Assembly (NCBI GenBank): GCA_046705145.1
Contig: JBJKQO010000033.1
Span: 4,023 to 68,022, forward strand
Source: Candidatus Woesearchaeota archaeon
GTDB taxonomy: Archaea; Nanobdellota; Nanobdellia; Woesearchaeales; JBJKQO01
Length of the DNA stretch: 64,000 nt
Direction of reading: 5' to 3'
Translations under genes and position numbers: made by a program
Notes under the pieces: model-generated
Seen by the model: only the letters and a program-made list of their open reading frames with translations
Told to the model about the DNA's origin: nothing
Database searches by the model: none
Shown here: in pieces, positions 10,325-60,822 of the stretch
Layout of the letters: every line of letters begins with the position of its first letter
How positions within the stretch are numbered: the stretch's first letter is position 1

Positions 10325-10530
10325 CAAAAATTGGCTAATTACTAATATTAGCTTGCCTATACTCAAAGCAAAGCTTTTCGTAATAGCAAACATAGTTTGC
10401 TATATCTCCGACCTAAAGGTCGGAGTATTACGGCTCGCTAATTTTGTTAGCCAATTTTTGGGATAGTAAAGTCGAGCCTGTATCTACAACCTAAAGGAAA
10501 TAGTATTAGGCTCGACTTTTCTATAAATAA
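10325..10530. repeat. structured intergenic repeat, family A, copy 1 (putative ncRNA or MITE-like element)
   Basis: The variable 5' module is closed by the stem ttggctaa...ttagccaa and contains internal hairpins. The conserved 3' hairpin is aagtcgagcct-N28-aggctcgactt followed by ttctataaat. A second copy is at 50821-51040. Confidence 0.6.
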
Positions 10531-10540
10531 AAAATTCTGG

Positions 10541-12386: not shown

Positions 12387-13589
12387 ATGGCACAGATAAG
12401 ATTCAATGACATCAGATTTTTTGATGAGGGAAAAGACATCAAGGCTATATTTCTCAAGAGATACTATTTCATGATATCTGGAGAGGAGATAGAAAAGATA
12501 GGCAGATACGATGTCAAGGAAGGTGAGATATCGATAGACTGCCCCCAGGCAAAGGCTGAAAGGAGATTCATGTTCCTGATAGAGGAAGGATTTAAGTGCC
12601 TGAAAAACATAATGAGCAAAAAAGAGACAGTCTACGTGCATAAGAATTCAGGGATCCCTCTTTTTGGGTCAGGCTCTTTTGGCATAGTTGACCGCGGAAC
12701 AAACCTTATCGAGATCAAGCCATCTACAGGCTGCAACATAAACTGCATATACTGCTCTGTAGATGAAGATAAGAGGCAGGTCGATTTCGTTGTCGAAGCA
12801 GATTACATGATCGAGGAGACAAGGCGCCTTGTCGATTTCAAGGGTTCAGATGACATCGAGATCCATATAGGCTGCCAGGGAGAACCCCTTCTTTACACCC
12901 CTTTAGCTGAACTCGTCAAGGGGATATCTTCCATAAGAGGGGTCAAGCAGATCTCTATGGACACAAACGCGACACTTCTTACAAAAGAGAAGGTTGACGA
13001 GCTTGTTGATGCTGGAATGACAAGGTTTAACGTATCCATAAACGCATTCGAAGACAGCCTTGCAAAAAAGATCTCTAACTCACCTTATGACATCAAAAAA
13101 GTGAAGGAGATATGCCGCTACATAGCAAAAAAGGCTGATATCATAATAACTCCTGTCCTGGTCCCGACTGTAAATGAAGATGAGATGGAAAAGCTTGTCG
13201 ACTTTGCAAAAGAGATAAGCCCTAATTCCAATATGCCAATAGGGATACAGAACTTCCTTGAGTACAAGCAGGGCAGAAATCCAGTCAAGCAATGGGACTT
13301 TGAAAAGTTCATAGGATTTCTCAAAGACCTCGAGAAAAAGAAAGGTGTAAAGCTCCTTCTCGGGCCAGAAGATTTCAGGATAACCAAGACAAAGACCTTC
13401 CCTAAACAATTTCGCAAAGGAGAGATCATAGAAGCGGAAGTCAAGAGCAAAGGAAGGTTCAAAAAAGAGTATATCGCAGCAGCAAAAGACACCGTCATCA
13501 CATTATCAGGCTGCCCAAAAGACAAGAAAAAGGTCAGGCTTAAGATAACAAGGACCAAGCACGGGATATATTATGGGACTTGTGTTTGA
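12387..13589 (+). CDS. radical SAM domain protein with a C-terminal TRAM-like domain
   Basis: CNINCIYC CxxxCxxC motif. I take ATG 12387 as the start; the ORF-track start at 12354 would overlap the tRNA terminator. Confidence 0.65.
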   Translation: MAQIRFNDIRFFDEGKDIKAIFLKRYYFMISGEEIEKIGRYDVKEGEISIDCPQAKAERRFMFLIEEGFKCLKNIMSKKETVYVHKNSGIPLFGSGSFGIVDRGTNLIEIKPSTGCNINCIYCSVDEDKRQVDFVVEADYMIEETRRLVDFKGSDDIEIHIGCQGEPLLYTPLAELVKGISSIRGVKQISMDTNATLLTKEKVDELVDAGMTRFNVSINAFEDSLAKKISNSPYDIKKVKEICRYIAKKADIIITPVLVPTVNEDEMEKLVDFAKEISPNSNMPIGIQNFLEYKQGRNPVKQWDFEKFIGFLKDLEKKKGVKLLLGPEDFRITKTKTFPKQFRKGEIIEAEVKSKGRFKKEYIAAAKDTVITLSGCPKDKKKVRLKITRTKHGIYYGTCV

Positions 13590-14146
13590 GCTATTCTTGA
13601 CCTTATATGCCCTACAATTGAATCGAGAGTTTCTTGTCCATATGTGGTAGCTACCTCAATAATATGCGAAGAAGGCCCAGGTAATATTATATGAGTTCCT
13701 GAACTTATCATATTAGTCGGATACCAATGTTGATTTTGGCCAAAAGAAACAAATCCATTCGCCTCTAAATATCTTTGTATAGCTTTATATGGCCCTTCTC
13801 CAGTCTTGAAATTCAGTTTTTCAGGCCAAGTCAGCATTTGGCAGAACGCATCTTGATCTTCAATTGAACGTGTAACTTGACTGGGCGATCTGCCTAGAGT
13901 TTCAAATGCCTGTTTTAGATATCTCATTAGTTCAGGATCAAAAGTCAATAGATTAAGAACTAATGTCGGCTGTATGTGAAGTACTGCACATGAACCCTCT
14001 CCAAAATACGCAGGAAACAGGTTATGAGATCCAAAACGGTGGTATCTTAAAGATAGATCCTCATGAAGTATATCTCGTATAGACTGGTTTGCTTCATAAC
14101 CTCCCTGAGGCAAGCTCACAGCGCAATAAGATACCTTAACCATAGC
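13571..14146 (-). CDS. hypothetical protein
   Basis: ORF with start trimmed to MVKVSY at 14146. The longer ORF-track N-terminus runs into repeat family B. Confidence 0.35.
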   Translation of the reverse strand, partial: AMVKVSYCAVSLPQGGYEANQSIRDILHEDLSLRYHRFGSHNLFPAYFGEGSCAVLHIQPTLVLNLLTFDPELMRYLKQAFETLGRSPSQVTRSIEDQDAFCQMLTWPEKLNFKTGEGPYKAIQRYLEANGFVSFGQNQHWYPTNMISSGTHIILPGPSSHIIEVATTYGQETLDSIVGHIRSRIAQTQVP

Positions 14147-14195
14147 ACCAAAAGAAAAAAACCTTTGTTTAAAACAATTTGTTTTTTTCCGGCTC

Positions 14196-14333
14196 TGTTG
14201 AAAAAGTGCGTCTGTGGCAGGATTGGCAGGTATTAGCCTTTGGCTAATCCTGCCATGCCCAGACGGAGCTGACCAAGTCCCCATACAGAGTATAGGGGTT
14301 TTGGTCAGCGAAGTAGGACTTTTTCTACTGAGC
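14196..14333. repeat. structured intergenic repeat, family B, copy 1 (inverted relative to copy 2)
   Basis: About 135 nt, reverse-complement of 28416-28552. The copies differ by compensatory substitutions inside predicted stems. Confidence 0.65.
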
Positions 14334-14383
14334 CGTTTTTTCCGAAACTAATTTATAATACCTACACGATTTTTTTTCTTAAA

Positions 14384-15286
14384 ATGGCAAAAAAGGACTT
14401 GGCACCTGGAGGACAGGCAGTTATCGAAGGAGTAATGATGCGCTATGATGAGAAGCTTGCGATAGCAGTAAGGCTTGAGAACGGCAAGATAAAGGTAAAG
14501 AAAGACAAGCTGAAGAAGAACAAGCATAAGTTTTTGAAATGGCCTTTTATCAGGGGTGTTGTGAACCTTGTGCAGATGCTTGTCGTCGGGATGAAAGCGT
14601 TAATATGGTCAGCAAACCAGTTCTCAGACGAAAAAGAGGAGCTTTCCTCAAAGCACGTGTTCTGGCTTGTCTTTTCCGCGATGCTTCTCGCAGCAGGGAT
14701 ATTTGTAGCGCTTCCTTACATACTGACAAGCCTTACAGGAGTAAAAGAGCTGAAGAATCCTTTGCTTTTCAACCTTATAGACGGGATAATCAAGACTATC
14801 TTCTTCGTAGCATACATCTGGGGCATATCGAGGATGAAAGATGTCAGAAGGCTATTTGAGTATCACGGAGCAGAACACATGGCTGTCCATTGTTACGAAT
14901 CAGGAAAAAAGCTTACTCCTGAAAACTGCATGGCGCACAAGACCATGCATCCGAGATGCGGAACAAGCTTCATAATGTTCGTTTTCGTGGTGAGCATAAT
15001 CGTATTTTCGATACTTCCTCCTGCAGTCCTGGCAATATGGCCTGGATTTGCATCTTTTGGCGTGTTCTTGCAGAAGCTGATCATGCTCCCTCTAAGGATA
15101 CTTTTCATACCTGTAATCGCTGCAATAGGATATGAGCTTCTGAAGCTTACAGCAAGGTTCCAGCATAACCTTATCTTCAAACTTTTCATATTTCCAGGGA
15201 TAGCTATGCAGAAGATCACGACAAAAAAGCCTGACAAGAAGCAGCTTGAGGTCGCGATCAAAGCGCTTAAGGAAGTCGTGGATTAA
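14384..15286 (+). CDS. DUF1385 (YqhQ-like) membrane-associated protein
   Basis: GGQAVIEGVMMR N-terminus and the YHGAEH motif characteristic of DUF1385. Confidence 0.65.
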   Translation: MAKKDLAPGGQAVIEGVMMRYDEKLAIAVRLENGKIKVKKDKLKKNKHKFLKWPFIRGVVNLVQMLVVGMKALIWSANQFSDEKEELSSKHVFWLVFSAMLLAAGIFVALPYILTSLTGVKELKNPLLFNLIDGIIKTIFFVAYIWGISRMKDVRRLFEYHGAEHMAVHCYESGKKLTPENCMAHKTMHPRCGTSFIMFVFVVSIIVFSILPPAVLAIWPGFASFGVFLQKLIMLPLRILFIPVIAAIGYELLKLTARFQHNLIFKLFIFPGIAMQKITTKKPDKKQLEVAIKALKEVVD

Positions 15287-16245: not shown

Positions 16246-16420
16246 TCTTGATAATGTCAGCATCAGGCTCGGCTGTGCTCCAGATAATGCTTCTCTCGTT
16301 GAAGCCCCGGATGGGGTGTCGCCAAGAATATCTTGGCGGACTTGCGAACAAGTTCGCAAGCGTCCCCCTCAACTCTGAACACATTCATCAGAATAGCCTC
16401 GCAAATTGATGCTGACATTA
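16246..16420. repeat. structured intergenic repeat, family C, copy 1
   Basis: Perfect 17-bp terminal inverted repeat tgataatgtcagcatca...tgatgctgacattatca encloses conserved modules ggctcggctgtgctcc, tcgccaa-N-ttggcggac, gcgaacaagttcgc, gttgaagccccgg and cccctcaactctga. Confidence 0.65.
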
Positions 16421-16477
16421 TCAAAAAAATGTTTTTTAGAAACTTTTATATAAATAATACGCTCAAGAACAGATTAA

Positions 16478-22711: not shown

Positions 22712-22975
22712 ATAGGTTTTCGGCTGTGTCTCAAATCTTACTCTGCAAGGTCCGCATCAGCCTTTTAAGAAAAGTCTGGCGAAAACATAACGGGCGTGAA
22801 GCCCGTTGTCGCGGCTTTCTTATAAATCAGATAGCCGCGATGCATGACTTTATGTCATGCTTCTTTTGGTCCAGCTTTTGTAAAAGGTGGGGCTCGGCTG
22901 TGCTCCTGAAGTTACAAGTATCGTTGAAGCCCCGTAGGGGCCAACCCCCTCAACTCTGAGCACATTCATCAGAAG
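22712..22975. repeat. structured intergenic repeat, family C, copy 2
   Basis: Outer inverted repeat cggctgtgtctc...gagacacagcc. The internal ~110 nt is near-identical to copy 1 (ggctcggctgtgctcc...gttgaagccccg...cccctcaactctga...tgatgctgac). Confidence 0.6.
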
Positions 22976-23063
22976 AGCCTCGCAAATTGATGCTGACTAC
23001 ATTCGAGACACAGCCCAAGTTTTCAAAAACCTTTTATACTTATTCTGAATCAGTCATGTCAAC

Positions 23064-27715: not shown

Positions 27716-28399
27716 ATGGGGGAAAATCAACCTGATGGAAAGTCGGTCAACATAACTTTTGAGACGCTTTTTGAGATCGCAACAAGAGAGAAGACAAGAG
27801 AAGAGCTGCAGGATATTCCTGAATATTTCTATAACGACGTAAAAAAGTATATAGAAGGGAAAAAACAGATAATGGACTCTTCTGACAGCTCAAACCCTTT
27901 TGCAGCATCAGAGATAGAAAAGGCAAGATCACAGCTTATGAGCGTAAGACGCGTGCTTAAGGACATATATGAAAGGAGAGAAAGGAAGATAATCACTCTC
28001 GCACTAAACAAGTCACGTACAGGATCTGACATAATAGACACTTCAAAGCTACTTCCTGAAGAGCAAAAGATGTTTGAAAGCCTGGTAAACGAGTTTGACG
28101 GGTTCAGAAAATGCATCCTGAGCAACCTTGTAGAAGGAAAACAGATAATAGTACCCAAACCGAAACAAAATGAACCTGTAAAGCCTGAGACTCCTGCAAA
28201 AGATGAGGGTGAGGAAGAAGAAGATCAGGCTCCTGAAGCTGACTCAAAGACAAAACTCATCAGGTTCATAAGCCCTGTTCCAAAGTTTGTGGGAAAAGAG
28301 CTTGAGGTGTACGGCCCATTCGAAGAAGAGGACATCGCAAACCTGCCAAAAGAGATAGCTGACGTGCTCATATCAAAAGGAAGGGCTGAAGAGGTCTAA
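27716..28399 (+). CDS. GINS-like replication factor (Gins51/Gins23-type), tentative
   Basis: N-terminal pattern LFEIATREKTREELQDIPEYFYNDVKKYI and ...YERRERKIITLAL resemble the archaeal Gins51 A-domain. An acidic linker is followed by a C-terminal beta-rich domain. Confidence 0.4.
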   Translation: MGENQPDGKSVNITFETLFEIATREKTREELQDIPEYFYNDVKKYIEGKKQIMDSSDSSNPFAASEIEKARSQLMSVRRVLKDIYERRERKIITLALNKSRTGSDIIDTSKLLPEEQKMFESLVNEFDGFRKCILSNLVEGKQIIVPKPKQNEPVKPETPAKDEGEEEEDQAPEADSKTKLIRFISPVPKFVGKELEVYGPFEEEDIANLPKEIADVLISKGRAEEV

Positions 28400-28415
28400 A
28401 ATTCCTAAAATAGTT

Positions 28416-28552
28416 CAGTAGAAAAAGCACTACTTCGCTGACTTCAACCCTATACTAGGGGTATAGGGACAAAGTCAGCTTAGTCTGGGTATGGCAGGAT
28501 TAGCCAAAGCTAATCCGTGCCAATCCTGCCACAGACGCACTTTTTCTACTGA
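28416..28552. repeat. structured intergenic repeat, family B, copy 2
   Basis: cagtagaaaaag...gctgacttcaaccctatactaggggtatagggacaaagtcagc...ggcaggattagccaaagctaatccgtgcc...ctttttctactg. Confidence 0.65.
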
Positions 28553-28622
28553 ACCTTTAAAACAACAAGTTTTAAATATCAAAAACCATCTCGCTTCTCA
28601 GATCAGAAAAAAAGGTTATTTA

Positions 28623-29003
28623 ATGATGAGAGACAGTATCAGGATAGGGTTTGTAGAAAAAGTCACGATATATGGGGCCAGCAAGAAAAAGAAAGCCCTG
28701 GCAAGGATCGATACAGGAGCGCAGAACAGCTCAATCGACATGGCTCTCGTTAAAGAGCTTAATCTTGGTCCTACAGTAAGAGAGGCTCGGATCAAGTCAG
28801 CAAACGGCATAAAGATAAGGCCTGTCATCATGGTGGAGTTTGAGATCGAGGGAAAAAAGATGAAATCCCAGTTCACGATCGCTGACAGGACCCACCTCAA
28901 GTACAACGTCCTCATAGGAAGGAACGTGATAAGAGAAGGCTTCATCATCGACCCTTCACTTAGTCCGGTAGATGATTCAGATGATGAGCCTGAAGAGGAT
29001 TAA
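28623..29003 (+). CDS. retropepsin-like aspartyl protease (RimK-associated, COG4067-type)
   Basis: ARIDTGAQNSSID (the DTG motif). Start trimmed to MMRDS because the ORF-track N-terminus overlaps repeat B. Immediately upstream of the RimK-like ATP-grasp gene. Confidence 0.55.
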   Translation: MMRDSIRIGFVEKVTIYGASKKKKALARIDTGAQNSSIDMALVKELNLGPTVREARIKSANGIKIRPVIMVEFEIEGKKMKSQFTIADRTHLKYNVLIGRNVIREGFIIDPSLSPVDDSDDEPEED

Positions 29004-39174: not shown

Positions 39175-39280
39175 TGGACCCGGCGGGATTTTCACAATCC
39201 AAAGTATTGAACCCGCTGCCTTCCGCGTTCCGGTCTCAAGAAAAGCCAGGCGGACACTCTACCGATGAGCTACGGGCCCA
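39175..39280 (-). tRNA. tRNA-Ala(GGC) with two introns (anticodon loop and T-loop)
   Basis: Acceptor GGGCCCG/CGGGTCC with the G3:U70 Ala identity pair, D-arm GCTC-ATCGGTA-GAGT, anticodon stem TCCGC/GCGGA with loop CTGGC[16-nt intron]AC, and T-arm GCGGG-TTCAA[17-nt intron]AT-CCCGC. The A discriminator is followed by CTTTTTTT. Confidence 0.6.
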
Positions 39281-50820: not shown

Positions 50821-51040
50821 GAATAACGCAAAGTCGCTAATTACCAATATGCTCGCCCTATCCCTTGCCTGAAGGTAGGGGTATTAGGGCTCGCACTAGT
50901 GTTAGCGACTTTGCGGAACAACAAAAATCGAAGATTTTTGTGTTCAATTAAAGCTTCGCTTTAATTTGAATAGGAAAGTCGAGCCTGTATCTACAACCTA
51001 AAGGAACTAGTATTAGGCTCGACTTTTCTATAAATCAAGA
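50821..51040. repeat. structured intergenic repeat, family A, copy 2
   Basis: The 5' module is closed by gtcgctaa...ttagcgac (compensatory relative to copy 1). The 3' hairpin aagtcgagcctgtatctacaacctaaaggaactagtattaggctcgactt is about 97% identical to copy 1. Confidence 0.6.
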
Positions 51041-51064
51041 AGATTTAAGTAAATTTAAATAGGA

Positions 51065-56156: not shown

Positions 56157-57164
56157 ATGGCAGATCTAGATAAGATTGATATTAAACTACTGGCAATCCT
56201 GGAAGAAGATGGCAGACAATCCTTATCGCAGATAGCAAAAAAGCTCAATACTTCTCAACAGGTTGTCAGCTACAGGATCAAATCTCTTGAAAAAAGGAAT
56301 ATCATAGGAGGATATTATACATTCATAAATTTTCTAAGGCTAGGCTATACCAGTTTCAGGACGATGATATCATTCAGCAACATAAATAAAACCAAACATA
56401 AGGAGATCATCTCTTTTCTTATGGATCATCCGAACGTCCTTTGGCTTGTTGACTGCAGCGGAAGGTGGGACCTGATAATTAACTTTCTGGCAAAAAACAT
56501 CATCCAGTACGAATCGATGTTCAATGAGTTCAGAAAAATGTTTCCAGACCAGATCCAAAACTATGACATACTCCCAACAGTTGAAGTGTCTTATTTCGGA
56601 AGAGATTACATAATGAAAAAACATAGGGACCTCAGAAAGAGTTCACTTCTCGGAAAAGAGTACGGGACAGACAGCCTGGACTTACTAAACTATAACATCC
56701 TTAAGATGATCTCAAAAAATGCAAGAATCCCTGCAGTTGAGATAGCAAATAAGCTTAAAGTTAGCCCTAACACTGTAATCCTTCGGCTTAATGAGCTAAA
56801 AAGAACCGGCATGATACAAGGTTATACCACGCTACTTCATCTGGATTATACAGGTTATAGCAGTTACAAGGCATTAATAAAGATATTTAATACGACCGAA
56901 GAAAAGGAAAATGCAATAATCAATAACCTGAGGTCTAACGTGAATGTAGTTGGATTCGTGAAACTTGTAGGATCCTGGAACTTTGAGATAGAATTTGAAG
57001 TAGAAACAAATGAGCAGATGATTGAACTCACAAGAGATATTAGAGACCGGTTCAGGGACAATATCAAGGAATTTGAGATAATCCAACTGCTTCACGAGTA
57101 TAAGTATGACTTCTTTCCTGGAGACCTGCTGGAAGACAACCCTAAAAAAAGCAATAAAAAATAA
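56157..57164 (+). CDS. double-domain Lrp/AsnC-like regulator, array paralog 1
   Basis: DIKLLAILEEDGRQSLSQIAKKLNTSQQVVSYRIKSL and NILKMISKNARIPAVEIANKLKVSPNTVILRLNEL HTHs, each followed by a RAM-like domain. C-terminus LHEYKYDFFPGDLLE. Confidence 0.65.
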   Translation: MADLDKIDIKLLAILEEDGRQSLSQIAKKLNTSQQVVSYRIKSLEKRNIIGGYYTFINFLRLGYTSFRTMISFSNINKTKHKEIISFLMDHPNVLWLVDCSGRWDLIINFLAKNIIQYESMFNEFRKMFPDQIQNYDILPTVEVSYFGRDYIMKKHRDLRKSSLLGKEYGTDSLDLLNYNILKMISKNARIPAVEIANKLKVSPNTVILRLNELKRTGMIQGYTTLLHLDYTGYSSYKALIKIFNTTEEKENAIINNLRSNVNVVGFVKLVGSWNFEIEFEVETNEQMIELTRDIRDRFRDNIKEFEIIQLLHEYKYDFFPGDLLEDNPKKSNKK

Positions 57165-57174
57165 CAAGGATCAA

Positions 57175-57243
57175 TCATTCAACCCTGCATTCACAATTAT
57201 CAGTTTCGACAGGTTTTAACTCATAATAGTGTTCTTCGACCAT
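57175..57243 (-). CDS. micro-ORF P5 (MVEEHYYELKPVETDNCECRVE)
   Basis: 22 aa. GGAGGG Shine-Dalgarno sequence 8 nt upstream. Divergent from Lrp paralog 2; its stop lies 10 nt past the stop of paralog 1. Confidence 0.45.
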   Translation of the reverse strand: MVEEHYYELKPVETDNCECRVE

Positions 57244-57357
57244 TTTAGTTCCCTCCTAAGTTATAATAATGTATAACTTCGAGATTAATTAAAGTATACG
57301 CCATATTTTTTTGTTAAATCGAAATATTTATATATAATTATTATATACCACAAAAAT

Positions 57358-58365
57358 ATGGTAATACTTGATAAAACCGATTTAAAGTTATTGTCGGAAT
57401 TAGATGATGATGCAAGACAGACCGTTTCAAAGATAGCAAAAACCCTAAACACCTCACAACAGGTCATCAGTTTCCGAATTAACTCCCTAAAGAGGAAAGA
57501 GATCATAAGCGAATACTACTCAATAATTAATTTTACAAAGCTGGGTTACACAAGTTACAGGACAATGATACGCTTCAGCAACATAAACAAGCAAAAACAC
57601 CAAGAGATCATAAAATATTTAACAGATCATCCAAACGTGCTATGGCTCGTCGACTGTGGTGGAAGATGGGATCTCCTCGTTAACTTTTTGGCAAAAGATA
57701 TAAAACAATACAGCATCATGTTCAATTCTTTTAAGAGCAGATTCCCGCAGCAGATAAGAAATTATGATGTCTTGACCACAATCGATTTTGTCTATCCTGG
57801 AAGAGCCTATTTATTTGGGCGAAAACCTGATAAGCCTAACAGGCCTTATGTAGGGATAGAAAGAGAGAAAGTAACCCTAGACAACACAGACTTAAACATC
57901 CTAAAAATGATATCTGAGGATGCGAGGCTAAGTAGTGTGATAATAGGCAATCACTTGGGGATAAGCTCTAATACTGTTATGACCCGGATAAAAGAGATGG
58001 GGAAAAAAGGGGTTCTTCTTGGAGCAAAGCCCCTAATCCATCTCGAAAACACCCCTTACAGGGGATATAAGGCACTTATTAAGTTTCAGGACATAACAGA
58101 AGAAAAAGAAAAAAGCATCATAAGCTTCCTGATGGAATTCGAGAATATAGTCGGCATAATAAGGATGGTGGGGATGTGGGATTTTGAGTTAGAGATCGAG
58201 TCAGAAAAACAGGAGGATGTGGTCGATATGATGAGATCCCTTCGGGACAGGTTCCATGATGTGATAAAAGAGTTTGAGATGTTCCCTTTGTTTCACGAAT
58301 ATAAGTACAACTTCTTTCCCAGAGATCTGCTGGAAGAGCATTCTGGCGAAAATATAACAAAGTAA
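57358..58365 (+). CDS. double-domain Lrp/AsnC-like regulator, array paralog 2
   Basis: Same architecture as paralog 1, about 50% identical. C-terminus FHEYKYNFFPRDLLE. Confidence 0.65.
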   Translation: MVILDKTDLKLLSELDDDARQTVSKIAKTLNTSQQVISFRINSLKRKEIISEYYSIINFTKLGYTSYRTMIRFSNINKQKHQEIIKYLTDHPNVLWLVDCGGRWDLLVNFLAKDIKQYSIMFNSFKSRFPQQIRNYDVLTTIDFVYPGRAYLFGRKPDKPNRPYVGIEREKVTLDNTDLNILKMISEDARLSSVIIGNHLGISSNTVMTRIKEMGKKGVLLGAKPLIHLENTPYRGYKALIKFQDITEEKEKSIISFLMEFENIVGIIRMVGMWDFELEIESEKQEDVVDMMRSLRDRFHDVIKEFEMFPLFHEYKYNFFPRDLLEEHSGENITK

Positions 58366-58443
58366 CAAAAATAATAAGCCCTGATGTTTCTATCCGGGTT
58401 ATTGCGCAAAATATAATTCGTGTTCAAGCTGATTTAGGCAATA

Positions 58444-58512
58444 TCACTCCATCCTAGCTTCGCAATCATCAGGGTCTAATTCTTCCAATTTGAATTTTGT
58501 TTCTTCCTCCAT
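58444..58512 (-). CDS. micro-ORF P6 (MEEETKFKLEELDPDDCEARME)
   Basis: 22 aa. GGAGGT Shine-Dalgarno sequence 6 nt upstream. Variant C-terminus DCEARME-stop. Confidence 0.4.
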   Translation of the reverse strand: MEEETKFKLEELDPDDCEARME

Positions 58513-58637
58513 TTTATACCTCCAAGCAGGTTATACTGCTCATAGTATATAGTGACATGAAAAATAATAAAACCTGTATGTTATAATATTTGTAAAATAG
58601 GAAAATTTATATAATAAAAGAAAATATAACAAAAATT

Positions 58638-59636
58638 ATGAAAAAAATTGATAAGATAGATCTCAAGATCATGTCTGCTTTAGACGATGATGCACATTGT
58701 TCGCTGTCTAGGTTAGCTAAAAAATTACAAACCTCCCAACAGGTCATAAGCTTTAGGCTGCAGTCCCTTAAAAAAAGGGGCATAATCAGCTCATTCTTTA
58801 CAGTTATTGATTTTACAAAGTTGGGATATACCAATTACAGGACAATGATCCGCTTTAGTAATATTGATGAAAAACGACATAAAGAAATAATTTATTTCCT
58901 AAGGGATCATCCCAGTGTGCTTTGGATCGTTGACTGCAGCGGAAGGTGGGACATTATAGTAAACTTTATGGCAAAGGACATAAGAAGGTATAACCTAATC
59001 ATAAGGGAATTTATCAATAGGTTTCCTGACCAGATCCAAAACTATGATGTTCTCACGACAGTTGAGCTATTGTATTTCAAAAGGGATTACTTTGACAAGA
59101 ATCATAGAAAAATAGATATCCTGCCCTATTTTGCTGATAACACTGAAATAATGAGTTTGGATGATATGAATATCAAAATCCTTGACCTTATATCAGAAGA
59201 TGCTAGACTTAGCTCAGTCGTAATAGCAAATAAGCTAAAACTAACTCCAAAGACCGTCCTTGCCAGGATAAAAGAGATGAAAAAAGAAGGTATCATCTGG
59301 GGATTTAAGCCGCTTATACATCTCGAAAACACCCCTTACCGCAGCTTTAAGGCTTTTGTGAAATTCCAAAACATAACTGAACAAAAAGAAAAACAGATCA
59401 TAGCCTTTTTTTCAGATAAGGCTAATGTGGTAGGTGTGATCCGTATGATAGGTCTTTGGGATTTTGAGGTGGAAATCGAGTCAGAAAGCCAGGAATATGT
59501 GATAAAACTCACAAGGGATTTCAGGGATAGATTTAAAGACATAATCAAAGAATTTGAGATAGTCCCCCTATTTCATGAGTACAAGTATAACTTCTTCCCA
59601 AGAGAACTAGTTAAAAAGAATGATACAAATACATAG
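58638..59636 (+). CDS. double-domain Lrp/AsnC-like regulator, array paralog 3
   Basis: Same architecture. C-terminus FHEYKYNFFPRELVK. Confidence 0.65.
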   Translation: MKKIDKIDLKIMSALDDDAHCSLSRLAKKLQTSQQVISFRLQSLKKRGIISSFFTVIDFTKLGYTNYRTMIRFSNIDEKRHKEIIYFLRDHPSVLWIVDCSGRWDIIVNFMAKDIRRYNLIIREFINRFPDQIQNYDVLTTVELLYFKRDYFDKNHRKIDILPYFADNTEIMSLDDMNIKILDLISEDARLSSVVIANKLKLTPKTVLARIKEMKKEGIIWGFKPLIHLENTPYRSFKAFVKFQNITEQKEKQIIAFFSDKANVVGVIRMIGLWDFEVEIESESQEYVIKLTRDFRDRFKDIIKEFEIVPLFHEYKYNFFPRELVKKNDTNT

Positions 59637-59642
59637 TCTCAT

Positions 59643-59705
59643 TTTATTCTGCCCTAGTCTCACAGGCATCAGGTTCTATTTTTTCGAATTCTTTGTTTTT
59701 TATCA
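59643..59705 (-). CDS. micro-ORF P7 (MIKNKEFEKIEPDACETRAE)
   Basis: 20 aa. GGAGGT Shine-Dalgarno sequence 7 nt upstream. Variant C-terminus ACETRAE-stop. Confidence 0.4.
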
Positions 59706-59826
59706 TTTTATAACCTCCTTATACATCTTCATCATAGTAAGTACTTTCAAAATTTATATAATTAATCACCATAATATTTTGTAAAATAACAAAATTTATA
59801 TAATATATCATCATAACACAATAAAT

Positions 59827-60822
59827 ATGACTAAAATGGATAAGTTTGATATGAAACTGCTTGCAGTGCTTGAGGAGGATGCAAGGCAAACCTCATCAAA
59901 AATAGCCAAAAGATTAAACACGTCACAACAGGTAGTCAGTTACAGGATCAAATCTCTGGAAAAAAGGAAGGTCATCATAGGATATTATCCTATCATTAAC
60001 ATCACAAAATTGGGTTACACAAGTTACAGGACAATGTTTCGGTTGAATGACACTGACAAGAAGACCCATTCAGAGATTGTCAAATACCTGAAAGAGAATT
60101 CCAATGTTTTGTGGTTTGTTGACTGCGGCGGAAGATGGGACCTAATAGTCAATTTTATAGCAAGGAATATCCTCCATTATAGCGCCCTATTAAGAGATTT
60201 CAGAAATTCCTTTAAGGGCCTGGTACAAAACCCTGATGTTCTTACGACTATTGAAATGATCCATCTGGGAAGAGAATACCTTACCAAAAAAAAGAGAGAA
60301 ATCATGGAACCCCCTCATTTCGGAAGAGAAGAAGAAAAAATTCTGCCTGACTTGACTAACCTGAAAATACTCAAAATCCTCTCAAAAGACGCCAGAACTA
60401 ATTCGGTACAGATTTCACAGGAACTAGGGATAAGGCCGAGTACAGTTATGCTAAGGATAAAAGACATGAAAAAGTCTGGAATTATCCAAGGGTTTAGGGC
60501 GCAGCTCAACTTAGAAAATACACCTTACAAAGGGTATAAGGCAGTCGTGAAATTCCAGAACATAACTGAAGAAGTAGAGCATGATATCATAGGTTACCTA
60601 AATCAGGACGTAAGGGTTTACGCAATAATAAGGATTATAGGCCTCTGGGACTTTGAGATAGAATTTGAGGTCGAGAATAATGAGCAGATGCTTGAGCTGA
60701 CAAGGTCTTTTAGGGACAAGTTCAAGGAACATATCAAAGAATTTGAGGTAATACCCCTATTCCATGAGTACCGCTACAACTTCTTTCCTGGAGACCTGCT
60801 GGAAAACAACGCAAAACTATAA
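59827..60822 (+). CDS. double-domain Lrp/AsnC-like regulator, array paralog 4
   Basis: Same architecture. C-terminus FHEYRYNFFPGDLLE. Confidence 0.65.
   Translation: MTKMDKFDMKLLAVLEEDARQTSSKIAKRLNTSQQVVSYRIKSLEKRKVIIGYYPIINITKLGYTSYRTMFRLNDTDKKTHSEIVKYLKENSNVLWFVDCGGRWDLIVNFIARNILHYSALLRDFRNSFKGLVQNPDVLTTIEMIHLGREYLTKKKREIMEPPHFGREEEKILPDLTNLKILKILSKDARTNSVQISQELGIRPSTVMLRIKDMKKSGIIQGFRAQLNLENTPYKGYKAVVKFQNITEEVEHDIIGYLNQDVRVYAIIRIIGLWDFEIEFEVENNEQMLELTRSFRDKFKEHIKEFEVIPLFHEYRYNFFPGDLLENNAKL

Follow-up and report, generated by a model that had tools for sequence, protein, structure and literature searches.

Two inverted copies of a structured, possibly MITE-like fold-back repeat in a woesearchaeal genome

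The 64-kb stretch of DNA analysed here (hereafter, the window), from an uncultured Candidatus Woesearchaeota archaeon (DPANN), contains two related, strongly folding intergenic sequences of 144 nt each, which lie among housekeeping genes, 14 kb apart and in opposite orientations. We give about even chances to the reading that they represent a lineage-specific MITE-like fold-back repeat, the single-stranded fold of which has been maintained; at any rate, the element looks more like a small mobile fold-back repeat than like a proven RNA gene. Under this scenario, the two sequences would be copies of a non-coding 144-bp repeat with terminal inverted repeats of 15-19 bp enclosing two GC-rich hairpins. 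Its spread would be due to transposition, with the transposase presumably supplied in trans from another locus of the genome, and it would have survived only where this compact Woesearchaeota genome offers one of its few gaps devoid of promoters. The fold of one strand (plus in copy A and minus in copy B; hereafter, the sense strand) would be kept by structure-preserving substitutions, in which case it is the folded single strand that should matter, most likely as a transcript and possibly as a single-stranded DNA intermediate of transposition or replication.

Extent and anatomy of the two copies

A model which had inspected only the letters and the open reading frames of this DNA (the sequence-only reading) described a structured element of ~135 nt in two inverted copies, 14196-14333 and 28416-28552. 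The existence of two such copies was confirmed by blastn, MAFFT alignment and a covariance model, and the homologous unit proved to be slightly longer, 144 nt in each copy. Copy A and the reverse complement of copy B, aligned by MAFFT, are 84% identical over 140-143 nt (blastn E ~1e-37). Both blastn and the covariance model (CM), built from the pair and run with filters off, found these two copies only in the 64 kb of the window. The features of the two copies are listed below, with the strand being that of the sense orientation.

14191-14334, plus strand: copy A, 144 nt, in sense orientation; CM score 172.6 bits
14191-14209 / 14316-14334, plus strand: terminal stem of copy A
14210-14264, plus strand: hairpin 1 of copy A
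14268-14309, plus strand: hairpin 2 of copy A
14310-14316, plus strand: conserved linker GAAGTAG of copy A
28412-28555, minus strand: copy B, 144 nt, with the sense on the minus strand; CM score 167.5 bits
28537-28555 / 28412-28430, minus strand: terminal stem of copy B, of which the core 15 bp pairs perfectly
28483-28536, minus strand: hairpin 1 of copy B
28437-28479, minus strand: hairpin 2 of copy B

The ends of the unit are well defined. The terminal sequence of the element is GGTTCAGTAGAAAAAGTGC plus its inverted copy; the terminal inverted repeat comprises 18 nt at 89% in copy A (I19) and 15 nt at 100% complementarity in copy B (I24), where it can be extended to 19 bp with G-T pairs. In both copies it reaches the last homologous base, homology between A and B stops at the stem ends, and the flanks of the copies are unrelated to each other, promoter-consensus sequence excepted. 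When the terminal-repeat pattern was searched for in the window with up to three mismatches, the four element ends were retrieved together with chance matches only. One isolated third match to the core of the terminal repeat (GTAGAAAAAGT) is found at 28646-28663, within the sequence coding for the RimB-like protein and 89 nt from copy B; this match is likely to be due to chance (blast E ~1).

Coding capacity is absent from the 144 nt, with stop codons in 11 of the 12 reading frames over both copies. A length of about 50-500 bp, lack of coding capacity and terminal inverted repeats located at the very ends of the unit are all properties of MITEs. The GC content is 0.51 in copy A and 0.47-0.51 for the element, compared with 0.37 in intergenic DNA and 0.41 in the window. 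Conservation between the copies is uneven: alignment columns 10-38 and 48-66 are invariant, and the remainder differs at 29%. An invariant motif, TGGCAGGATT, is present three times per copy (two direct and one inverted), and the 9-mer GGCAGGATT has five exact occurrences in the window, four of which are within the two copies.

The fold, its covariation and its strand polarity

All four strands (both of each copy) fold at -71 to -83 kcal/mol (z -8 to -12), and none of 200 shuffles folds as well as either strand of either copy. RNAalifold yields a three-armed fold with 47 consensus pairs, in which a terminal stem of 17-19 bp is formed around two hairpins. This three-armed fold is kept in both copies, in agreement with the sequence-only reading, which had proposed a structured element with a conserved fold; the hairpin sequences which it had quoted are present as well, read from the minus strand of A and from the plus strand of B. 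The parts of the consensus are as follows.

Terminal stem, 17-19 bp: GGYTCWGTWGAAAAAGTGC and its complement
Hairpin 1, stacked directly on the terminal stem: GTCTG-TGGCAGGATTGGC...GCTAATCCTGCCA-URCC-CAGAC
Linker of 3 nt between hairpin 1 and hairpin 2
Hairpin 2: GCTGACNNN-GU-CCCYATAC...GTATAGGG-UU-NNNGTCAGC
Conserved linker after hairpin 2: GAAGTAG

The 5' arm of hairpin 1 (14210-14264 and 28483-28536) is duplicated (GGCAGGATT / GGCAGGTATT or GGCACGGATT), so that two mutually exclusive helices can be formed. The two are separated by 2.4-3.1 kcal/mol in both copies; the preferred state is not the same in A and B, and the bulge migrates between the copies.

The copies differ at 28 alignment columns, including 16 of the 51 unpaired and 12 of the 94 paired ones. 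All 12 differences which fall in consensus pairs keep pairing, and no consensus pair is broken. Five pairs have changed on both sides, namely, (3,143) C-G>U-A, (84,114) C-G>U-A, (85,113) A-U>U-A, (86,112) A-U>U-G and (92,106) C-G>U-A, while two further pairs show one-sided G-U changes. When an equal number of substitutions is placed at random, at least five double changes are obtained with P ~1e-4 to 3e-4 and equally few broken pairs with P <=1e-3, and both ranges hold when the structure is taken from one copy alone. However, three of the five double-changed pairs are adjacent, which leaves about three events (P ~0.02), and in a within-pair shuffle control two sequences impose a floor of 16/500 (p ~0.03). 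The observation that differences between the copies preserve base-pairing, also made in the sequence-only reading, is right, and its statistical weight is modest. Three mismatches in the closing stem of copy A are uncompensated: U-U (6,140), U-U (9,137) and G-G (18,128). Since substitutions are concentrated in the loops, it is the pairing that is conserved, and not the sequence of loops or junctions.

The two strands of the element are not equivalent. The sense strand has the better minimum free energy in both copies, and the consensus fold reaches -67.2 kcal/mol on the sense versus -59.8 kcal/mol on the antisense strand. In copy B, seven G-U pairs are formed on the sense strand versus two on the other. 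Moreover, both copies retain the G-U pair (35,55) as well as two internal loops, GU/UU in hairpin 2 and URCC in hairpin 1, while the neighbouring pairs covary. Taken together, the G-U asymmetry and these retained features point to a single strand of fixed polarity as the form that matters. Such features are not needed for transposase recognition of double-stranded ends, and they fit a selected RNA. In the MITE-like reading, the single-stranded form, probably RNA, would be under structural constraint.

The retained G-U pair and internal loops also argue against simple arm-to-arm correction of a DNA palindrome, and thereby bear on an improbable alternative in which the element is an inert relic, its fold being kept by template switching, intrastrand quasi-palindrome correction or gene conversion, with neither selection nor ongoing mobility. 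The adjacency of three of the five compensated pairs would be accounted for by one multi-nucleotide event copied from arm to arm, and the long invariant blocks could reflect conversion between the copies. Yet arm-to-arm correction should erase mismatches, whereas both copies retain, beside covarying pairs, the GU/UU internal loop, a 4-nt asymmetric loop and a G-T mismatch. Furthermore, one of the corrected pairs is a wobble (T-G) rather than a perfect complement.

A more serious rival, to which we attach some probability while considering it rather unlikely, is that A and B form a pair of paralogues, each encoding a structured small RNA of ~140 nt that contains a three-way junction and in which hairpin 1 is bistable. 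Such an RNA would be produced from the sense strand, possibly through divergent firing of the TATA region of the neighbouring gene, would end at the T-run, and would act in trans or bind a protein. This proposal is consistent with the five pairs changed on both sides with none broken, the occurrence of 5-6 G-U versus 0 A-C pairs together with the better folding energy of the sense strand in both copies, and a GC content well above the intergenic level. The conserved G35-U55 wobble, the internal loops and the GAAGUAG linker agree with it too, as do the two exclusive helices of hairpin 1, which are kept in both copies 2.4-3.1 kcal/mol apart with a migrating bulge. On the other hand, the loops and the J2/3 junction vary freely, only pairing being kept; the closing stem of copy A contains two U-U and one G-G mismatch; and the covariation amounts to ~3 events in two sequences (p ~0.02-0.03). 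The sequence-only reading had taken covariation as the signature of a functional RNA as opposed to a selfish DNA repeat, but this step does not hold, because compensatory changes have also been described for bcr1, which is MITE-like (PMC3184786).

Placement of the copies relative to genes and promoters

Both copies are located in gaps next to promoters, which they leave intact. The surroundings of copy A are arranged as follows.

13571-14143, minus strand: orphan gene Y, 190 aa
14166-14173, minus strand: TATA-like box TTTAAACA of orphan gene Y, 22 nt before the ATG and 17 nt outside the 5' end of copy A
14182-14190: TTTTTTTCC, which abuts copy A and may be the left half of a 9-bp target-site duplication
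14335-14343: GTTTTTTCC, right half of the possible target-site duplication, which supplies the T6 run directly 3' of copy A
14352-14359, plus strand: TATA box TTTATAAT that serves the DUF1385 gene, 17 nt beyond the 3' end of copy A
14384-15286, plus strand: DUF1385 gene, downstream of the TATA box at 14352-14359

Thus, copy A occupies the gap between two divergent promoters, those of gene Y and of the DUF1385 gene. The 9-mers TTTTTTTCC and GTTTTTTCC, which both directly abut the copy, are identical at 8 of 9 positions; in intergenic DNA of the window such a flank match arises by chance at a rate of 4.5e-4 per test. Removal of copy A along with one 9-mer leaves a normal 23-nt spacing between both TATA boxes and a compact divergent promoter region, the putative empty site reading ...CAATTTGTTTTTTTCCGAAACTAATTT.... 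Gene Y and copy A together account for ~800 bp between the radical-SAM and DUF1385 genes. In the nearest relative (L014, a Logan contig), which is only 66% identical in protein, the two genes overlap by 4 nt, and both gene Y and the element are absent from the site. Because the relatives are distant (66-81% amino-acid identity), the empty site constitutes weak evidence of a recent insertion.

Gene Y has no homologue among 1.84e9 representative proteins save its own public entry, P0241, and no match in Pfam or NCBIfam, and its AlphaFold model (pLDDT ~37.5) is uninformative. We considered gene Y as a transposase or partner of the element and rejected it on these grounds. The first 47 residues of P0241 (237 aa, ORF 13571-14284) are translated copy A. 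The sequence-only reading had regarded this N-terminal extension as probably spurious, and we concur, since 22 nt after the TATA-like box, at the spacing usual for leaderless genes here, there is an in-frame ATG at 14143, the likely true start; despite this ATG, the 237-aa version was retained in the public annotation.

Copy B is flanked by two features.

27716-28399, plus strand: Gins51 gene, with its stop codon 12 nt from the 3' end of copy B
28571-28578, plus strand: strong BRE/TATA promoter TTTAAATA (16.1 bits) of the RimB-like/RimK operon, at a distance of 15 nt from the 5' end of copy B

Copy B thus sits between the Gins51 stop codon and the promoter of the RimB-like/RimK operon. Considered as a target-site duplication, its flanks match at 4-5 of 9 positions only, and T4 runs are all that is present on its 3' side. 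Given that the Gins51 stop codon lies 12 nt from the 3' end of the copy, transcription of B in the sense direction would continue, in antisense orientation, into the end of Gins51. The N-terminal extension of the RimB-like ORF through this copy is spurious, as had been suspected from the sequence, because the homologue in a relative starts at window residue ~43-45, which corresponds to the ATG at 28623. The site of copy B in L014 is cut by the contig end; within the 79 nt available upstream of RimB, L014 has a similar promoter (AAACAA, a short spacer and TTTAAATA) and no element. The sequence-only reading had named a MITE with target-site duplications and no expression as an outcome that would speak against an RNA: the terminal inverted repeats and the duplication-like 9-mer at copy A agree in part with such an outcome.

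In this genome, the typical promoter consists of a TTTAWATA box after an A-rich BRE, 22-25 nt before most start codons, and the mRNAs are therefore largely leaderless; the RimB-like gene, with a leader of ~20 nt, is an exception. The strong boxes near both copies are promoters of the divergent neighbours. Using a position weight matrix trained on 15 promoters of the window, we obtained sense-direction scores of 5.7 bits for A and 5.5 bits for B, compared with 10-22 bits for real promoters. Both matches are in the top 0.2% of positions, and a start site set by them would fall near the first stem bases. With this matrix, no convincing BRE/TATA of its own was found in sense orientation for A or B. 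An element-borne promoter, made of the TTTAAAAC box and the T-rich stretch shared on the 5' side, was also considered and rejected, since both are explained by the BRE/TATA consensus of the neighbours; a similar RimB promoter is present in the L014 stretch, which shows no element. In the same window, four paralogous genes of ~1.2 kb lie in tandem (56157-60822, plus strand; DNA 65-77% identical); their products, of 331-335 aa, contain two AsnC/Lrp-type HTH domains each, and a separate TTTATATA promoter precedes the ATG of every gene by 23-25 nt.

These data cut both ways for the proposed small RNA genes. The weak sense matches (5.5-5.7 bits) place a start near the first stem bases in both copies, a T6 run is present 1 nt after the stem of A, and T4 runs are present after B. 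Nevertheless, the scores fall far short of the 10-22 bits of real promoters in this genome, the BRE/TATA of the neighbours accounts for both the TTTAAA box and the T-rich 5' flank which the copies share, and the T6 run may itself be the duplicated target. The more specific version of this proposal appears to us a shade less probable still: it holds that the element is a hitherto undescribed, lineage-specific three-way-junction RNA of ~140 nt, bistable in its first hairpin, with paralogous genes that are transcribed divergently from the neighbouring promoters.

The placement next to promoters lends itself to yet another explanation, namely, that the element acts in cis at the DNA level, be it as a protein-binding palindrome with a regulatory role upstream of genes, as an insulator separating promoters or as a site of recombination. 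Both copies are positioned 15-17 bp upstream of a TATA box, with the gene transcribed away from the same end of the element. The invariant blocks within an otherwise 29% different sequence, the presence of TGGCAGGATT three times per copy and the concentration of GGCAGGATT within the copies (four of the five exact occurrences in the window) would also suit a binding site. We nevertheless consider this explanation improbable, at the level of the inert relic. The orphan ORF and the RimB-like protease have no evident common regulation, the strand asymmetry of G-U pairs and the compensated changes in hairpin 2 are not explained by a double-stranded site, and no candidate binding protein is linked to the element. 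In addition, with 144 bp and about -80 kcal/mol, the element would greatly exceed in size the operator and activator sites known from archaea.

Distribution, nature and comparison with known systems

Searches with Infernal against Rfam 15, one of the checks proposed in the sequence-only reading, identified no RNA family for either copy at gathering thresholds; permissive scans returned only chance-level matches, which are not the same in A and B. The sole feature of the window to pass the thresholds is a tRNA gene at 39175-39279 (minus strand; 45.5 bits). This gene, missed by ARAGORN, has insertions of 20 nt in the anticodon loop and of 19 nt in the T-loop region, and is typical of intron-bearing archaeal tRNAs.

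The surrounding genes are archaeal (e.g. Gins51, ScpA, thermosome and the tRNA with two insertions). Apart from singleton NCBI proteins matched by the DUF1385 protein and the thermosome, all protein matches come from Woesearchaeota or Nanoarchaeota MAGs, the nearest being at 66% and 81% identity, and the protein collection contains no strain within 90% protein identity of the source organism. The covariance model detected no copy in 95 kb from five Woesearchaeota relatives. An inverted-repeat unit of 154 nt upstream of the thermosome gene in one of them (L056) is AT-rich and unrelated. The 18-mer of the invariant core, GTCTGTGGCAGGATTGGC, is absent from 185,579 species genomes save 13 unrelated bacterial chance matches, and a 23-mer searched for in JGI metagenomes matched a single locus, which is bacterial, high in GC and unrelated; it was seen in five samples and shares no more than 23-24 nt. 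Four scans of viral contigs gave chance matches or none, with the covariance model negative in those loci, and blastn against phage and plasmid collections gave nothing. For the proposed small RNA genes, the lack of an Rfam match and of a homologue in the 95 kb of relatives or at the syntenic site counts as contrary evidence. No transposase and no longer element with matching ends was found in the window, and a literature search combining Woesearchaeota and MITE matched only papers on arthropod mites.

Two further families of GC-rich structured repeats were observed in the window. The second family is represented by 16266-16416 (within a unit spanning 16248-16424) and 22891-22997 (plus strand), which share blocks 96% and 78% identical; both copies are just upstream of a BRE/TATA promoter, and Rfam yielded no match for this family. 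The first of these copies carries an extra insert of ~48 nt made up of two perfect hairpins (16316-16363); its terminal inverted repeat, 18 bp long, is likewise perfect (16248-16265 / 16407-16424). The nested long-range helices of this family (GGCTC...GAGCC, TGTGCTC...GAGCACA and GTTGA...TCAAC) suggest an RNA-like fold. The third family is a 77-nt hairpin (AAAGTCGAGCC...GGCTCGACTTT) found at 10458-10534 and 50965-51041, 92% identical, each copy being directly after the stop codon of a minus-strand gene; it looks like a 3'-end/terminator element or part of a duplicated gene end. GC-rich structured repeats may be a general feature of this genome, and a small RNA specified by A and B, if there is one, could be one of several GC-rich structured RNA families here, alongside 16266-16416/22891-22997 and 10458-10534/50965-51041.

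Several known classes of elements were considered for A and B and rejected. PATEs are defined by similar subterminal hairpins at both ends and have no terminal inverted repeats. An IS200/IS605-derived PATE does not fit, since hairpin 1 (GGCAGGATT...) and hairpin 2 (GCTGAC...CCCTATAC) are unrelated and terminal inverted repeats are present. H/ACA or C/D sRNAs were dismissed because a weak snoR2 match in A has no counterpart in B, an ACA box is missing, and the terminal stem forms an ordinary helix with no K-turn. A hammerhead-like junction is incompatible with the strand lengths and sequences, 5S, SRP and RNase P RNAs give no Rfam signal, and no RYYYAAC/GTTRRRY cores of an integron attC site were apparent by eye. 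The resemblance to origin-recognition boxes is only vague, and the interior of the element is GC-rich. Finally, inversion of the 14-kb segment between the copies was discarded because synteny breakpoints relative to L014 do not coincide with the copies.

Returning to the MITE-like repeat, this reading is favoured by dispersed copies in opposite orientations, the 9-bp repeat at A, absence from the relatives sampled and loops which are free to vary, as well as by the presence in the same 64 kb of another short repeat with a perfect 18-bp terminal inverted repeat (16248-16424). The points against it are that only two copies are known, copy B is without a convincing target-site duplication, the element is GC-rich, the window contains neither a transposase nor a longer element with matching ends, the G-U pairs favour one strand, and internal loops and one G-U pair are conserved beside covarying pairs. 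With two copies, the finding is modest as it stands.

DPANN genomes are very small and dense, and selfish repeats are expected to be purged from them. Archaeal MITEs are known from several groups, such as the SM elements of Sulfolobus and those of Halobacterium and Haloquadratum, with no DPANN or Woesearchaeota example in a review of MITEs (PMC10969869). If confirmed, the element would indicate that DPANN genomes still carry mobile non-coding DNA, lodged exactly in the gaps between promoters. If it is an expressed RNA instead, it would add a new structured RNA to a lineage in which hardly any non-coding RNAs have been characterised. Recognition of the repeat also corrects gene starts, as in the public annotation at least one ORF (P0241, 237 aa) has been drawn out across the element.

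Like archaeal structured sRNA genes, which form GC-rich islands in AT-rich genomes, the element is GC-rich, strongly folded, intergenic and, in copy A, followed by a T6 run, but it has no Rfam 15 match and no convincing BRE/TATA of its own, and is absent from the sampled relatives. ERIC- and Correia-type repeats of bacteria are imperfect palindromes of 100-150 bp which are found between genes in either orientation and can fold on both strands; they are sometimes co-transcribed, affecting neighbouring genes, and Correia elements are flanked by TA duplications. Our element shares with them the imperfect palindrome located between genes, either orientation and the folding of both strands, and differs in sequence, no similarity being found as judged by Rfam.

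Prokaryotic MITEs have terminal inverted repeats, no ORF and a length below 300 bp, and are inserted in AT-rich intergenic DNA; their transcripts are typically stable stem-loops, and their direct repeats decay with time (PMC10969869). The woesearchaeal element resembles them in its terminal inverted repeats, lack of an ORF, length of 144 nt and intergenic location. In contrast to MITEs, which are usually AT-rich, it is GC-rich, and no parent insertion sequence with matching ends was identified. Among such elements, bcr1 of the Bacillus cereus group, MITE-like and ~155 bp long, is transcribed, and its cruciform-like RNA fold is kept by compensatory changes; it is present in many copies with 5-bp direct repeats, and its genomic distribution is not conserved between relatives (PMC3184786). 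The element described here has no sequence similarity to bcr1, is archaeal, is known from sequence and in two copies, and shows a possible 9-bp duplication at one of these only. It is nevertheless similar to bcr1 in size and, like bcr1, is intergenic and non-coding, with a fold kept by compensatory changes.
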